Positions 3,404 to 33,853 of a DNA stretch of 64,000 nt are shown piece by piece. A program made the translations under genes and the position numbers. This DNA comes from an uncultured Spirochaetota bacterium (GTDB lineage Bacteria > Spirochaetota > Spirochaetia > SZUA-6 > Fen-1364): the NCBI GenBank assembly GCA_963820525.1, contig CAWGAA010000001.1, positions 2,528,001 to 2,592,000 of the forward strand. Reading direction: 5' to 3'. A model generated the notes under the pieces. It was not told where the DNA came from and did no database searches. It worked only from the letters and a program-made list of their open reading frames with translations. Position 1 is the first letter of the stretch, and every line of letters begins with the position of its first letter.

Positions 3404-3904
3404 GTGGAGCTGAAGGACATCTTCATTGCCAGGAAGACCTCCTCGCGGATCTCACTCGACGATATCGGCTTTTTGTACCGGGGCGGGCAAAAGCTTCTGC
3501 AGAGAGTTCGCCTCTCTGTCTCTCCCCGGGAGATCGCCGTCATCACGGGGGATTCCGGAGTGGGAAAGACGACCCTCCTGAAGCTGATCGGCTCGCTTCT
3601 CAAGCCCACCGAGGGGCTGGTCGGCTGCCCTCAGGGGATCGGGTTCGTGTTCCAGGACGACCGTCTCCTTCCCTGGCGAAACGTGTCGGCCAGCGCAGCG
3701 CTGCCCCTCATCTACCAGGGCTTCAGCGGGCTTCACCGCGAGGCGCGCCGCATGCTCTGGGACAAGCTGCTCCGCCTTCTCGCCCTGCATCCGGTTCCCG
3801 TGGTCGTGGTGACCCATTTTCCCGAGGAAATCTCTTCGACGAAAGCCTGCCGGCTGTATGAGCTTCGAGGCGGGCCGGCCACCCTCGCGCGCATCGCTTT
3901 GTAG
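3404..3904 (+). pseudogene. Internally deleted ABC ATPase (nitrate/sulfonate-type), start uncertain
   Basis: Walker A GDSGVGKTT, Q-loop FVFQDDRLLPW and H-loop VVVTH are present, but LSGG signature and Walker B are absent (YQGFS joins directly to GLHREARR). Confidence 0.75.
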
Positions 3905-3966
3905 GCGGGGCGGGCGAAGCGAAGCCTCCTCCCGCCGGCGCTTGGAGAGGCGGGCCCCCGTCGTCA

Positions 3967-28534: not shown

Positions 28535-30289
28535 CTATCCTCCCTGCGGCTTTGCAGCGGCGCGCTTCTCGATCCTGGCCCAGGTGTCCTTCAGAGAGAC
28601 CGTCCGGTTGAACGCCAGCTTGCCGGCGGTCGAATCGGGATCCACGCAGAAGTAGCCAAGACGCTCGAACTGGAACCGGTCTCCCGGACGGGCGGCCTTC
28701 AGGCTCGGTTCCCCCTTGCATTCGGTCTCCACCACCAGGGAGCCGGGATTGACGGTGTCGATCCAGTCGGCGCCGGGAGGGACCTCTTGAGGATACTCGG
28801 CTGAAAACAGATGGTCGTATAGCCGGGCCCCAAAGTTGATCGCCTTTACGGCGGATACCCAGTGGATAGTTGCCTTCACGGCGCGGTTGTCCGCTGCATT
28901 TCCACCGCGGGTGGAAGCATCGTAGGTGCAGCGCACTTCGAGGATTTCCCCGGTTTTCGGATCCTTTTCCAGGCCGGTGCACGTGACGATGTAGGCATAG
29001 CGCAGCCGCACCTGCCGGCCCGGCGAGAGCCGGTAATACTTGGGGGGCGGCACCTCGCGAAAATCATCCTGCTCGATGTACAGCACCTTCCCGAAGGGCA
29101 CCTTCCTCGTTCCGGAGGCAGGATCTTCGGGATTGTTGACCGCATCCAGCTCCTCGCTTGAGTTTTCGGGATAGTTCTCGATTACGAGCTTCAGCGGCTT
29201 GATCACTGCCATGACCCTGCGGGACCTCCGGTTCAAGTCCTCGCGGAGGCAATGCTCCAACAGCGCAATGTCCACCGTGCTGTCGGCCTTGGCCACGCCG
29301 ATGCGGGAGGCGAAGTCCCTGATGGCCTCGGGGGTATAGCCGCGACGGCGAAGGCCCGCCAGGGTGGGCATCCTCGGATCGTCCCAACCCCGCACCTTCT
29401 TCTGCTGAACGAGCCCCAAAAGCCACCTCTTTGAAAGCACGGTGTGGGTGAGGTACAGCCGGGCGAACTCGATCTGCCTGCTCCTGAAGATCCCCAACTG
29501 CTCCAGGAACCAGTCGTAGAGGGGCCTGTGCACCTCGTATTCCAGGGAGCACAGCGAGTGGGTGATTCCCTCGATGGAATCCGAGACGGGGTGAGCGTAG
29601 TCGTACATGGGATAGATGCACCACTCATCTCCCGTCCTGTGGTGCGTCGCATGGCGGATCCTGTACATCACGGGGTCCCTCATGTGGAGGTTGGGGTGCG
29701 CCATGTCGATCTTTGCGCGCAGGGTATGCGAGCCGTCGGGAAACTCGCCCGCGCGCATTCTTCGAAACAGGTCGAGATTCTCCTCCACCGAGCGGTTCCT
29801 GGAGGGGCTGTCGCGCCCCGGAGGGGTCACGGTTACGGGGCCCTTGTCCGTCACGTCGGTTCCGCGATACTCGCGGATCTCCTGATCGTTCAAATCGTCG
29901 ACGTAGGCCTTGCCCTTCCTGATCAGCTCTTCCGCGTATCCGAAGAGCCGCTCGAAGTAGTCCGACGCGTAAAAGAGACGGTCTTCCCAATCGAATCCGA
30001 GCCAGCGGACATCATTGAGAATGGAATCGACGTACTCGACCTCTTCCCTGGTCGGGTTGGTGTCGTCGAACCTGAGGTTGCACTTCCCGTGGAACTGCTC
30101 TGCGATGCTGAAATCGATGCAGATCGCCTTGGCATGACCGATGTGGAGGTAGCCATTGGGCTCGGGAGGGAAGCGGGTATGCACGCGATCGAATCTTCCC
30201 GTTCGCAGGTCCTCCTCGACGGCCTCCCGGATGAAATCGGAAGCCGCGGCCGTGCGCGGGCTCTCTCCCGAGGCGATTGGATCTGTCAT
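28535..30289 (-). CDS. glnS: Glutamine--tRNA ligase
   Basis: [52 protein letters not shown] before ATG 30289. Confidence 0.97.
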
Positions 30290-30385
30290 AGATGGTTCCT
30301 CCTGCCGAGCTTCAGGGGCTCGGTGAATACACTCATAGCCTTGCACCGGTCGAGATGTCAAGCATGAGCCTGCGGGAGAAAAGCC

Positions 30386-31066
30386 TTACGCCGCCGCGAC
30401 CGCCCATCCAGAATCCAGGCCGGCCGGCCCGTCCGGCGGGATCTCGGAGACTATCGAGAGCCGCCATGGGTGAGGTTCCTCCTCGAGGCTGCGCCGCTTT
30501 GCCTTGGGTACCTTGCGGTACAAAAGGAGAAACATGCCGTAGACGAACAGCGTCTGAAGCACTCCAAGGGCGGCTATCGCCACCGGGTCGCGCAGCCGTG
30601 CCATGGCCACGATGCTCACGGCGGAGCCGGCAAAGGAGCCGAAGGCGTCCGCCATCGCGTAGCGGCGGTCGAAGGCGGCCCGGTTCCTGCGGTACTTCAC
30701 CTCCTTGATCTTCTGCATGAGGAAAACCACAGAGGCTGAGAACACCCCCATGATGAACATCGTGAGAAGGTAGTAGGCCATCAGGTCCACCGCGGCAAGA
30801 ACTGCGGATGCCGTTGTGACGGCGAGCTCGGCGACCATGAGCGCCGGCAGGACGGCGTAGAGCCTGCCGAAGAGCTTCCGGTTTCCGAGCATGGCGCCGA
30901 TGAGCACGGGAAAGGCCGATGACATGAACGAACCCAACGCGATGATGCGGCCGTCGAGACGCGAAAGGATGACGCTCACGTACAGAGGATTGAGAAAACC
31001 GTAAAAGAAACTGGCGATGAAGCCGCTGAGAACGAAGACGTCGAGGTAATGCTGTAATTTCTTCAT
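30386..31066 (-). CDS. Half-size (about 6 TM) MFS-like membrane protein
   Basis: Six hydrophobic segments with MFS-like N-domain pattern; AGGAGGTG SD before ATG 31066. Confidence 0.7.
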   Translation of the reverse strand: MKKLQHYLDVFVLSGFIASFFYGFLNPLYVSVILSRLDGRIIALGSFMSSAFPVLIGAMLGNRKLFGRLYAVLPALMVAELAVTTASAVLAAVDLMAYYLLTMFIMGVFSASVVFLMQKIKEVKYRRNRAAFDRRYAMADAFGSFAGSAVSIVAMARLRDPVAIAALGVLQTLFVYGMFLLLYRKVPKAKRRSLEEEPHPWRLSIVSEIPPDGPAGLDSGWAVAAA

Positions 31067-31229
31067 TTCCCACCTCCTGCGCGTGGACGGGACACGCATA
31101 GGAGATGGAAGAGACATCCCCTATGCCCTAAGCGAAGCTGTTACTCCCAGGATCTTCGGAATGATCCATTTTCCCTCCCCCTTTGAAAAAGGGCATAACG
31201 TACGGCTCCCAAATGCCGAGCCGCGGGAC
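31067..31229 (-). promoter_or_regulatory. Putative translational attenuator (structured 5' leader)
   Basis: Mutually exclusive helices: UAUGCCCU/AGGGCAUA; GCAUAGGGGAUG/CAUCUCCUAUGC; UUCCAUCUCCU pairing with the SD region AGGAGGUGGGA. Confidence 0.7.
31128..31169 (-). CDS. Putative leader peptide MDHSEDPGSNSFA
   Basis: GGAGG SD 4 nt before ATG; stop TAG abuts the anti-anti-SD helix. Confidence 0.55.
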   Translation of the reverse strand: MDHSEDPGSNSFA

Positions 31230-31235
31230 ACCACA

Positions 31236-31265
31236 AGCGTACCACCGGGGCAGGCCCTGAGTCAA
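31236..31265 (-). promoter_or_regulatory. sigma70-like promoter with extended -10
   Basis: TTGACT-18-TACGCT with TG just upstream of the -10. Confidence 0.55.
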
Positions 31266-32848: not shown

Positions 32849-33853
32849 GTGGAATGCAAAAGAACGGCGGCGCGCGCCGCAGGGCGGGAAAAATTGGCGC
32901 TCCTCGGGAGGGCGGAGCTCTTCTCCACGCTGGACGAGGAGGAGATCGCGATCATCGCGAGATACAGCGGATACCATTCCTTCGACGCGGGCCAGGTGAT
33001 CTTCTCCGAGGGCAGCCAGGTTGAGGAGTTGTACCTCATCAAATCGGGGACCGTGGTTATCCGCAAGAAGACCGAAGGCGGAGAGGATAACGACATAGCG
33101 CGATTCCTCGAAGGAGAGCTGTTCGGGGAGATGGACCTTCTGGACACCACTCCTCGTGACGCCTCCGCCATCGCGGAAACCCCCACGAACCTCCTCATCT
33201 TTCCCCGGCGCGGGTTGCTCTTTCCCAACATCCTTGAACGGCACCCCAACATCTTCGCCCGTATCCTCCAGAAGCTCCTGGGCATCGTCGCCGGAAGGAT
33301 TCGCGCAACCGACAGGCTCATCTCGGAGAAGACCCCGTGGATACAGGAGCTGAAGAGACAGCTCTTGCGGGACAAGCTCACCAGCCTCCATAACAAGGCC
33401 TACCTCGAGGAGGAGCTTCCGAGGATCCTCGCCAAAATCCCGCAGACGAGCTTCCTCGTGGTGAAGCCGGACAACTTCAAGACGATAAACGACGTCCATG
33501 GGCACGATGCCGGCGACAAAGCCCTGGTCCTCATCGCGGAAACCCTGAAATCCGGCTTGAAGGATGCGGACATCGCGGTCCGCTACAGGGGGGACGAGTT
33601 TTGCATCATCCTGAACGGCAGGCCGTGCAATGAGGCGGTGCGGATAGCCGCTGATCTCCTCGTCGTCTATAAGGGTATTGACGTCACGCCTCTCATTGCC
33701 GGCGAGCGGCTTACCCTCACCGCCAGCATCGGAGTTTCCAGCTTCCCCGACCTCGCCAGGGACGCGGCCTCCCTCGTGTCCAACGCTTTCGAAGCGATGA
33801 TGGAAGCGAGAAACTCCGGGGGAGACGGTTTTCGCGTCAGGGGGGGAGCATGA
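32849..33853 (+). CDS. cNMP-binding + degenerate GGDEF (RGDEF) protein
   Basis: Phosphate-binding cassette FGEM...PRDASA; KPDNFKTINDVHGHDAGD; RYRGDEF. Confidence 0.9.
   Translation: MECKRTAARAAGREKLALLGRAELFSTLDEEEIAIIARYSGYHSFDAGQVIFSEGSQVEELYLIKSGTVVIRKKTEGGEDNDIARFLEGELFGEMDLLDTTPRDASAIAETPTNLLIFPRRGLLFPNILERHPNIFARILQKLLGIVAGRIRATDRLISEKTPWIQELKRQLLRDKLTSLHNKAYLEEELPRILAKIPQTSFLVVKPDNFKTINDVHGHDAGDKALVLIAETLKSGLKDADIAVRYRGDEFCIILNGRPCNEAVRIAADLLVVYKGIDVTPLIAGERLTLTASIGVSSFPDLARDAASLVSNAFEAMMEARNSGGDGFRVRGGA

Follow-up and report, generated by a model that had tools for sequence, protein, structure and literature searches.

The 64,000-nucleotide (nt) stretch of DNA analyzed here, hereafter the window, comes from an uncultured Spirochaetota bacterium and has a G+C content of 62%. 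On its minus strand, with a gene for a HAD-family hydrolase upstream and glnS downstream, lies a gene, P0001 (30386..31066, ATG at 31066), for a protein of 226 amino acids with six membrane helices and a fold like that of transporters of the major facilitator superfamily (MFS). The gene is preceded by a leader of about 160 nt, which had been proposed, from the letters of the sequence alone, to be a leader-peptide translational attenuator (hereafter the original prediction). All the elements then described, a promoter, a short upstream open reading frame (uORF) with its own Shine-Dalgarno sequence (SD) and three helices, A, B and C, said to be mutually exclusive, were found in place on the minus strand, to which the coordinates given below refer unless noted.

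The promoter (31236..31265) is formed by the -35 hexamer TTGACT (31265-31260), an 18-nt spacer and the -10 hexamer TACGCT (31241-31236), as predicted; it is missing from a consensus promoter scan, its -10 hexamer matching at 3 of 6 positions. Within the -35 hexamer falls the stop codon (31264-31262) of the HAD-hydrolase gene upstream; as this leaves no room for a terminator between that gene and the leader, transcripts begun farther upstream may run on into the leader. In the stretch from the transcription start to segment 1, the first of four segments that take part in the pairing, the computed fold has a hairpin (31204..31223), the sequence of which differs among related loci; G+C-rich hairpins analogous to it were recognized by eye in other loci. 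Segment 1 (UUAUGCCCU; 31190..31198) is the 5′ arm of helix A and resembles the 3′ arm of helix B. It is followed by the SD of the uORF (GGGGAGGG; 31173..31180), with GGAG at position -9 from the uORF ATG, and by the uORF itself (31128..31169; ATG at 31169, TAG at 31130-31128), the 13 codons of which encode the peptide MDHSEDPGSNSFA. Codons 5-9 (31143..31157), for E-D-P-G-S, form the core of this peptide, at which the ribosome is proposed to stall with either Pro7 or Gly8 in its P site. The stop codon sits at the 5′ edge of segment 2, the anti-anti-SD (31115..31130), within which the 3′ arm of helix A (31130-31122) overlaps the 5′ arm of helix B (31126-31115). In segment 3 (31096..31110), the 3′ arm of helix B (31107-31096) overlaps the anti-SD, which is the 5′ arm of helix C (31110-31100), and segment 4 (AGGAGGUGGGA; 31068..31078) is the SD region of the gene and the 3′ arm of helix C.

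Helix A pairs 31197-31190 with 31129-31122 and can be extended to 9 base pairs (bp; 31198-31190 with 31130-31122). Helix B, of 12 bp including one G-U pair, joins 31126-31115 to 31107-31096 across a loop of 7 nt. Helix C has 11 bp (31110-31100 with 31078-31068) and encloses an inner stem, absent from the original prediction, of 6 bp (31080..31098; UGCGUG at 31098-31093 with CACGCG at 31085-31080) and a 7-nt loop; an inner stem of other sequence is found at the same place in other loci. Helix C and its inner stem together hold the SD of the gene within a 17-bp interrupted hairpin. The ATG lies 5 nt past the SD region, and this start is backed by 26 aligned homologues, all of which begin with M-K/R/N/S. 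A terminator scan of the minus strand detected no terminator-like site in the leader; the sequence after helix C is A-rich, and no U-tract follows any of the hairpins. A transcription attenuator with an intrinsic terminator was rejected on these grounds, and the sequestration of the SD together with the missing U-tract fits translational rather than transcriptional attenuation. The conclusion that the window alone allows is modest, as it is suggestive and not compelling; it is the comparison with relatives that lifts the element above chance.

Conservation of the leader in related loci

A scan of one genome per species yielded 16 related loci (L001 to L016), all in Spirochaetota assemblies and with a protein identity of 40-69%. 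All 16 have a uORF, helices B and C and a promoter at the same place before the same six-helix gene. With the window leader, these loci make up 17 sources, and where homologous leaders devoid of the uORF and helices would have spoken against the original prediction, the opposite was found: the uORF, helix B and helix C are present in all 17. Each source has GGAGGTGG or a close variant of it as the SD of the gene. Among the matches upstream of the uORF, a hexamer pair of the form TTG[A/C]C.-17/18-TA...T, with 7-10 of the 12 positions matching, ranks first in 16 of the 17 sources and ties for first place in the remaining one (L006).

In every source the uORF is an in-frame ATG-to-stop reading frame of 11-15 codons at the same place, and an SD-like tetramer is found 8-16 nt before its ATG in 15 sources, so that the prediction of a uORF with an SD of its own was borne out. 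The two leaders without such a tetramer, L012 and L013, carry a deletion relative to L015 and L016 that took out both segment 1 and the SD of the uORF (at 3899-3907 in each); their uORF ATG lies 6 nt past the -10 hexamer, making them an effectively leaderless natural variant without helix A. In the window leader, L001, L002, L015 and L016, an AUG within segment 1 (UAUGC; 31194-31196 in the window) is in frame with the uORF. Initiation there would give an N-terminally extended peptide, but about three independent lineages are concerned and the arrangement may be due to chance.

The encoded peptides are short and share a core. In addition to MDHSEDPGSNSFA in the window, they read MEHNDDPGSRLVLLA in L001, MQHTDDPGGKLT in L003, MEHPDDPGSSPH in L010, MDRSEDPGSRTST in L014, MEHDDNSGWCPVVPA in L008 and MDNGDQSGSSVDLTA in L011, and, in a distant clade, MIEDPWSSPAA in L012, L013 and L015 and MFEDPWSSPAA in L016. 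The core common to the 17 sources is [E/D]-[D/N/Q]-[P/S]-[G/W]-[S/G/W]; it contains DPG or DPW in 15 sources (DP(G) in 11 and DP(W) in four). Upstream of the core, His3 is present in nine of the 13 peptides of the close clade (the window, L001, L002, L010, L014, L008, L003, L004, L005, L007, L009, L006 and L011). In the first three codons of the core, positions 1 and 2 show little or no variation, while the entropy of the third position is 1.38, 1.22 and 0.87 bits; this third-position variation in the codons for [E/D], [D/N/Q] and [P/S] points to selection on the amino acids.

The end of the uORF is likewise held in place. The stop codon, UAG in 16 sources and UAA in one, is never more than 7 nt away from the 5′ arm of helix B, its position ranging from -7 to +7 nt over the 17 sources. 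Such placement is achieved in more than one way, by a UAG inside segment 2 that is in frame (L001, L002, L006, L008, L011 and the distant clade) or by a separate stop just upstream of segment 2 (the window, L003-L005, L007, L009, L010 and L014). That the placement of the stop is kept despite changes of frame is the strongest sign in these sequences that the end point of translation matters. The spacing between codon 8 and the stop, on the other hand, varies (15, 18 or 24 nt, with 3 to 6 codons after codon 9), which argues that the core acts at the catalytic center of the ribosome and not at termination; the residues just before the stop are not conserved.

Pairing was measured on a MAFFT alignment (A3) of the 17 leaders. 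For helix B, 91.1% of 190 cells are paired, as compared with 36.6-61.6% in six controls in which the partner columns were slid, and five of the 12 pairs have changed on both sides in a compensatory manner; its covariation score of 0.278 (shuffled mean, 0.228) was reached by 2 of 500 shuffles. Helix C, with 91.6% of cells paired and three of 11 pairs compensatory, is the sole structure that RNAalifold predicts unaided. Segment 2 is complementary to segment 1 as well as to segment 3, and from lineage to lineage the three have changed in concert: segments 1, 2 and 3 read UAUGC, GCAUA and UAUGC in the window type, UGUGCG, CGCACG and UGUGC in the L003 clade, CUCCCGCG, CGCGGGAG and CUCCCGUG in L014, and GGCGG, CCGCC and GGCGG in L008. 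The parts of the attenuator, their conservation and the mutual exclusivity of helices B and C can be read directly from the aligned sequences. Of the three mutually exclusive helices originally predicted, B and C thus stand, conserved and with compensatory changes, whereas A stands in part, being clear in about 12 of the 17 leaders.

For helix A, the longest ungapped helix has 8-12 bp and falls at the homologous place in 11 sources. Nine of the 15 leaders tested beat 95% of their shuffles (L016 was matched by 84 of 1000), and cognate arms form 9-12 bp as compared with 6-8 bp when arms are swapped between leaders of the L003-type clade and those of the window/L001 type. A covariance model (R1) left segment 1 of the window, L008, L014, L015 and L016 unaligned, so helix A was judged from the helices of the individual sequences and their shuffles. 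Judged in this way, helix A is an accessory part of the leader. The same model recovered only its 17 source leaders, the next match having an E value of 0.037, and it revealed no second copy of the leader in the 64-kb window or in the loci; a scan of the leader against Rfam returned eight matches, all far below the gathering scores (E values of 0.59-9.8).

Folding of the leader and position of the ribosome

When the full-length leader of the window (31235-31055) was folded with RNAfold, helix C was present in the minimum-energy structure and helices A and C in the centroid. The fold has a z-score of -2.0, and 7 of 200 shuffles fold as well. The picture is different for an RNA that begins at the edge of a stalled ribosome and stops just short of the SD of the gene: helix B is then the minimum-energy fold in 17/17 leaders.

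The spacing of the elements agrees with the dimensions of the ribosome. A ribosome with codon 8 in its P site protects the mRNA to about +13 to +15. In 12 of the 13 close-clade leaders, the 5′ arm of helix B begins 17-22 nt after codon 8 (26 nt in L008), which, given this footprint, would leave segment 2 just free behind a ribosome stalled there. A ribosome with the stop codon in its A site, on the other hand, covers at least 5 nt of the 5′ arm of helix B in all 17 leaders. Opening of the SD behind a terminating ribosome is computed to cost 8.7-24.4 kcal/mol, and in 14 of the 17 leaders it is at least 4 kcal/mol dearer there than behind a stalled ribosome. By this geometry, the availability of helix B would depend on the position of the ribosome on the uORF.

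At equilibrium, the SD stays largely paired even when segment 2 is free. We therefore read the ON state as a kinetic trap, formed co-transcriptionally; the direct-path barrier from B to C, 9.0-19.4 kcal/mol, is a heuristic estimate that bounds the best direct path from above. In these models helix C is the ground state and helix B the co-transcriptional trap. A kinetic ON state of this kind differs from the usual account of erm induction, which takes place on pre-made mRNA.

A proposed ribosome-mediated switch and its alternatives

The best reading of these observations is that the leader is a ribosome-mediated translational attenuator, like those of erm, cat and trp, that serves one gene in soil spirochaetes, for a stand-alone six-helix MFS-like membrane protein. 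We put at about 0.7 the probability that translation of the uORF, by way of helices B and C, determines whether the SD is accessible and that stalling turns the gene ON. As long as the uORF is free of ribosomes, helices A and C would form, the SD would be buried and the gene would be OFF. A ribosome that reads the uORF to its stop would cover segment 2 while segments 3 and 4 are made, so that C would form and the gene would again be OFF. A ribosome arrested at [E/D]-D-P-[G/W], with codon 7 or 8 in the P site, would end 2-10 nt short of segment 2; it would leave that segment free, keep segment 1 away from it and block the ribosomes that follow. The local hairpin B would then form first and trap the anti-SD, and the strong SD of the gene would be open for a time, the ON state. 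Since C is usually more stable than B, the switch would have to be kinetic and co-transcriptional. Stalling at the core, the exclusion of helix A by the stalled ribosome and a lifetime of helix B long enough for initiation are what we infer this scheme to involve. Of the erm/cat-like logic of the original prediction, the uORF, the SD-sequestering helix C, the competing helix B and the placement of the stop hold in 17/17 sources; the ON state could be a kinetic trap only and not an equilibrium structure, as helix C is the more stable of the two in most leaders.

Several observations weigh against this scheme. Ribosome stalling and induction of the gene rest on inference from sequence and folding. 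The 17 sequences are related, making up about nine lineages by eye, and the shuffle counts given above are not probabilities. The C state lies below the B state in energy in 14 of the 17 leaders, and when the full RNA behind a stalled ribosome is folded, C is the minimum-energy structure in 11 and B persists in six; in the window leader the barrier from B to C is only 9.0 kcal/mol, so that the ON state depends on heuristically estimated kinetics. Helix A is not universal: the best helices of L006 and L011 are non-homologous, that of L010 has 5 bp, helix A is interrupted in L008, and segment 1 is lost in L012 and L013. Of 1000 dinucleotide shuffles of the upstream sequence, 114 reached the 9 bp of the window's own helix A, and only 67.6% of the cells of helix A are paired in alignment A3, partly through misalignment, which the covariance model did not repair. 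At the level of the peptide, the Pro of the motif is replaced by Ser in L008 (N-S-G) and L011 (Q-S-G), so that a strict XP(X) motif fails in 2 of 17 sources, and the data on arrest motifs with which the core is compared below come from Escherichia coli ribosomes. Finally, codons 8-10 (31140-31148 in the window) are conserved as nucleotides, for which a model based on the peptide gives no reason. Codon 8, where it encodes Gly, is GGG in 13/13; codon 9 is AGT in 11/11 where it encodes Ser and GGT in 5/5 where it encodes Gly; and codon 10 begins with A in 15/17. This pattern creates an out-of-frame UAG or UAA in 15 of the 17 sources, and RNAalifold, applied to the 17 leaders, found no pairing partner for the stretch. 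The constraint may reflect decoding speed, tRNA identity or an SD-like GGAG.

As to what would arrest the ribosome, arrest peptides as short as those of the erm, cat and cmlA leaders do not normally work without a small molecule, and with seven or eight residues a chain extends only a short way into the exit tunnel. That so short a nascent chain (7-8 residues) is conserved as a peptide argues for a small molecule that acts at the peptidyl transferase center (PTC) or in the upper exit tunnel. Candidates are a natural antibiotic that targets the ribosome and a metabolite, possibly the substrate of the pump itself. On E. coli ribosomes, the erythromycin-dependent arrest motifs, written with their second residue in the P site, include +X(+), XP(X), +X(W) and XP(W) (Seip et al., 2018; PMC6238534, in part). 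The DP[G/W] of 15 of the 17 leaders may be an instance of XP(X)/XP(W), a very permissive class. A macrolide-type compound is the one concrete lead, by analogy, and only a lead. A search of the open-access literature for a link between hygromycin A and context-specific stalling in spirochaetes gave nothing relevant. A more far-reaching version of the attenuator is possible, although we would sooner bet against it than for it: the leader peptide M-x-H-x-[D/E]-D-P-G-[S/G] might be a new ligand-sensing arrest peptide, in which a chain of 7-8 residues, together with a natural product or metabolite from peat and soil, jams the PTC, thereby switching on an undescribed six-helix 'semi-MFS' exporter built for transient expression.

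The same RNA switch logic would serve a leader that senses uORF occupancy in general, with neither a specific arrest peptide nor a ligand. Any slowed elongation over the first codons would then hold ribosomes back from segment 2 and open the SD, whether through a lack of charged tRNA for Asp, Pro, Gly or Ser, inactive EF-P, a low level of Mg2+ or an elongation inhibitor of any kind, and the core would simply be a stretch that is by nature slow to translate. We regard this as unlikely, yet as deserving some weight. Among the XP(P) pauses, D-P is the strongest intrinsic context, DP(P) being the strongest such pause (PMC6238534, in part). Moreover, minor codons are used, AGT accounting for 5% of Ser codons, GGT for 8% of Gly codons and CCT and CCA for 20% and 4% of Pro codons (AGT and GGT as counted in four genes of the window), and they are fixed at third positions, as expected if decoding speed matters. 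However, the leader lacks a run of identical regulatory codons, unlike classical amino-acid attenuators; its single Pro means that the published strong intrinsic motifs, PP(X) and XP(P), are absent; and residues upstream of the core are also conserved, as the His3 of the close clade illustrates. The polarity could also be the reverse, with the uORF a constitutive repressor or acting at termination, its peptide acting on the UAG or being a micropeptide, and stalling locking the gene OFF. A UAG stop in 16 of 17 sources that always abuts segment 2, and the fact that a ribosome held at the stop would favor helix C, are in line with this, but with 3 to 6 codons after codon 9 the core would have moved to differing depths of the exit tunnel by the time of termination, the final residues of the peptide are not conserved, and the conserved, covarying helix B would be left without a role; this polarity is accordingly improbable.

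Two further explanations dispense with the ribosome as the sensor. The original prediction had allowed that helix A might close a ligand-binding aptamer, the uORF being incidental. Helix A does enclose about 60 nt with conserved nucleotides, among them some invariant third positions of codons, but no Rfam family beyond chance-level matches was found at E values up to 10, RNAalifold finds no conserved structure in the enclosed region, codons 5-7 vary at third positions only, as coding sequence does, the start, the stop and the SD of the uORF are kept in 17, 17 and 15 of the 17 sources, and L012 and L013, without segment 1, still keep the uORF, B and C. A riboswitch is therefore very improbable, and the aptamer is the one suggestion of the original prediction that we set aside. 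Least probable of all, in our estimation, is a passive SD-masking hairpin, either an RNA thermometer or an mRNA-stability element, with no sensing of ribosomes: helix C, taken alone, is indeed the strongest and most conserved structure, but the conserved uORF, the placement of its stop and the covarying competitor B would go unexplained.

The six-helix protein, its neighbors and known attenuators

P0001 belongs to a family that standard profiles do not capture, as no Pfam family was found for it at an E value of 0.01 and no NCBIfam family. A word-indexed search gave 165 relatives, roughly 150 of which are metagenomic homologues; the best 120 of these 165 are 207-254 amino acids long and 59-74% identical, and every named entry among the 120 is listed from 'Spirochaetia bacterium' assemblies. 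In a profile search of 1.84 billion representatives, 48 proteins were found at E values up to 0.001, all of them of at most 270 amino acids except for two long repetitive proteins, in which partial matches recur 9 and 11 times. Distant relatives of 185-200 amino acids are included, and a fused 12-helix form is absent from the 48. The AlphaFold2 model of P0001 shows six long helices and a disordered tail (pLDDT 79.5). Its top Foldseek matches in the PDB are nearly all MFS transporters (NorA, SotB, LmrP, VMAT, GLUT and others), all at E values of at least 0.18; the best, with NorA, SotB and LmrP, reach query-normalized TM-scores of 0.55-0.59 over about 185 columns with a probability of 0.99-1.0, but likewise at E values of 0.18 or more. 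Language-model leads point to MFS_1 clusters, and a precomputed PF07690 label is attached to two of the 120 listed homologues. In the Pfam search, none of 22 family members and distant relatives reached a cut-off, MFS_1 appearing below threshold in 4 of the 22, and a profile search of PDB sequences gave no match at E values up to 10. The original designation of the gene as a 'half-MFS' thus has some support at the level of the fold, from Foldseek and the six helices of the AlphaFold2 model, and none from Pfam; on the strength of these models it is a reasonable description of the fold that does not imply membership of the family. Prediction of a homodimer of the six-helix protein gave a score of 0.23, against a mark of 0.42, and speaks neither for nor against it. 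Stand-alone six-helix MFS halves were not found described in a search of the open-access literature, passages of PMC8154325 included.

At the C-terminus, 100 of the 120 listed family proteins end in Ala-Ala and 46 in Leu-Ala-Ala, and 91 of the 120 have an acidic-His-Pro motif in their last 45 residues (EEPHPW in P0001, the C-terminus of which is encoded at 30386-30450, minus strand). We take the Ala-Ala ending to resemble the C-terminal degradation signal of ssrA-tagged proteins. Such an ending would, by analogy, suit a briefly expressed protein, and it is one sign on which the suggestion of a transiently expressed semi-MFS exporter draws.

The genes around the leader were called from 65 of 128 open reading frames, picked by a greedy longest-frame rule, and the downstream side of L002 is uninformative. 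On the same strand, glnS lies downstream in the window and in nine loci; genes for a TRAP-type transporter are found downstream in L012, L013, L015 and L016, and other neighbors in L008 and L014. The leader stays with the six-helix gene in every context while the neighbors change. Upstream of the leader, L001, L004 and L011 have genes for adenylate/guanylate cyclases, and in the window an open reading frame on the plus strand (32849-33853) appears, by eye, to encode a cyclic-nucleotide-binding domain followed by a GGDEF-type domain. Co-regulation of glnS by the leader was rejected, since glnS has a conserved promoter-like site and a 5′ hairpin of its own. In the window the promoter-like site of glnS (ATG at 30289, minus strand) is TTGACA-17-TATGAG, and the hairpin (30307-30325, minus strand), which ends 1-3 nt before the SD of glnS, has a 6-bp stem and a 7-nt loop, CCCUGAA, that contains CUG, the anticodon of tRNA-Gln. 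The hairpin is found in eight of the 10 sources linked to glnS (the window, L003, L004, L005, L007, L009, L010 and L011), with the stem CCGAGC/GCUCGG in the window and CCGCGC/GCGCGG elsewhere, a compensatory change. Autoregulation of thrS makes use of a mimic of the anticodon arm, and the glnS hairpin looks like such a mimic; against this, the sequence in the window has a different structure as its minimum-energy fold (z-score 0.32), and an Rfam scan of the glnS leader gave no match.

Only a few short arrest peptides for the sensing of small molecules are, to our knowledge, described, and every one of them has been informative on the catalytic center of the ribosome. The leader described here offers a candidate arrest peptide with natural variation in about nine lineages and a clear RNA read-out. 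The switch marks a six-helix MFS-like family that is restricted, as far as sampled, to uncultured Spirochaetota; tight, transient regulation of this family would suggest a response to stress or to an antibiotic, and the inducer would probably reveal the substrate. With segment 1 placed upstream of the uORF, a kinetic trap as the ON state and a leaderless version, the leader would amount to the erm/trp logic rebuilt from different parts.

The closest parallels are the leaders of ermC, ermB and ermD. These, too, have a short uORF with its own SD and alternative pairings of four segments, 1:2 with 3:4, or 2:3; pairing 3:4 hides the SD of the gene, and a ribosome arrested after 7-10 codons redirects the pairing. 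ErmDL is described as arresting with residue 7 in the P site, in dependence on residues 4-5 (PMC8298421, in part), the same geometry as we propose here. The peptide of the present leader is unrelated, however, and segment 1 lies upstream of the uORF, whereas in erm it is inside the uORF. The stalled ribosome would here cover no segment, but free segment 2 and hold back the ribosomes bound for the stop; with helix C the more stable of the two competitors, the effect must be co-transcriptional; and the target is a six-helix membrane protein and not an rRNA methyltransferase. In the chloramphenicol-inducible translational attenuation of cat-86 and cmlA, the nascent peptide at the stall is very short and the SD is sequestered, and cmlA encodes an MFS exporter. 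There, a single hairpin is melted directly by the stalled ribosome, whereas in the present leader a separate anti-anti-SD hairpin competes with the SD hairpin. Attenuators of the trp type share the positional logic, in that a ribosome at the leader stop masks segment 2 and gives 3:4, one held earlier gives 2:3 and the absence of a ribosome gives 1:2 and 3:4; their output is an intrinsic terminator, in contrast to the masking of the SD here, where there is neither a U-tract nor a run of regulatory codons.

Two other systems bear on the target and on the peptide. As in mef(E)/mel, which responds to ribosome-targeting drugs, a leader peptide precedes an MFS-type gene, for efflux in that case, but mef(E)/mel is reported as transcriptional attenuation, with a full-length 12-helix MFS protein and a different peptide (PMC4335068, in part). 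TnaC and similar peptides exemplify the joint sensing of a nascent peptide and a small molecule by the ribosome (PMC8429421, in part); they are longer and act at the stop or at a fixed distance from it, whereas the spacing between core and stop varies in the present leader. A search of the open-access full-text literature returned no described equivalent of this leader. At the level of sequence, it has all that defines a leader-peptide translational attenuator, namely a conserved uORF, a sequestered SD and an exclusive alternative helix; what is particular to it is the new conserved peptide, segment 1 upstream of the uORF, the kinetic ON state, the leaderless variant without helix A and the orphan target gene.

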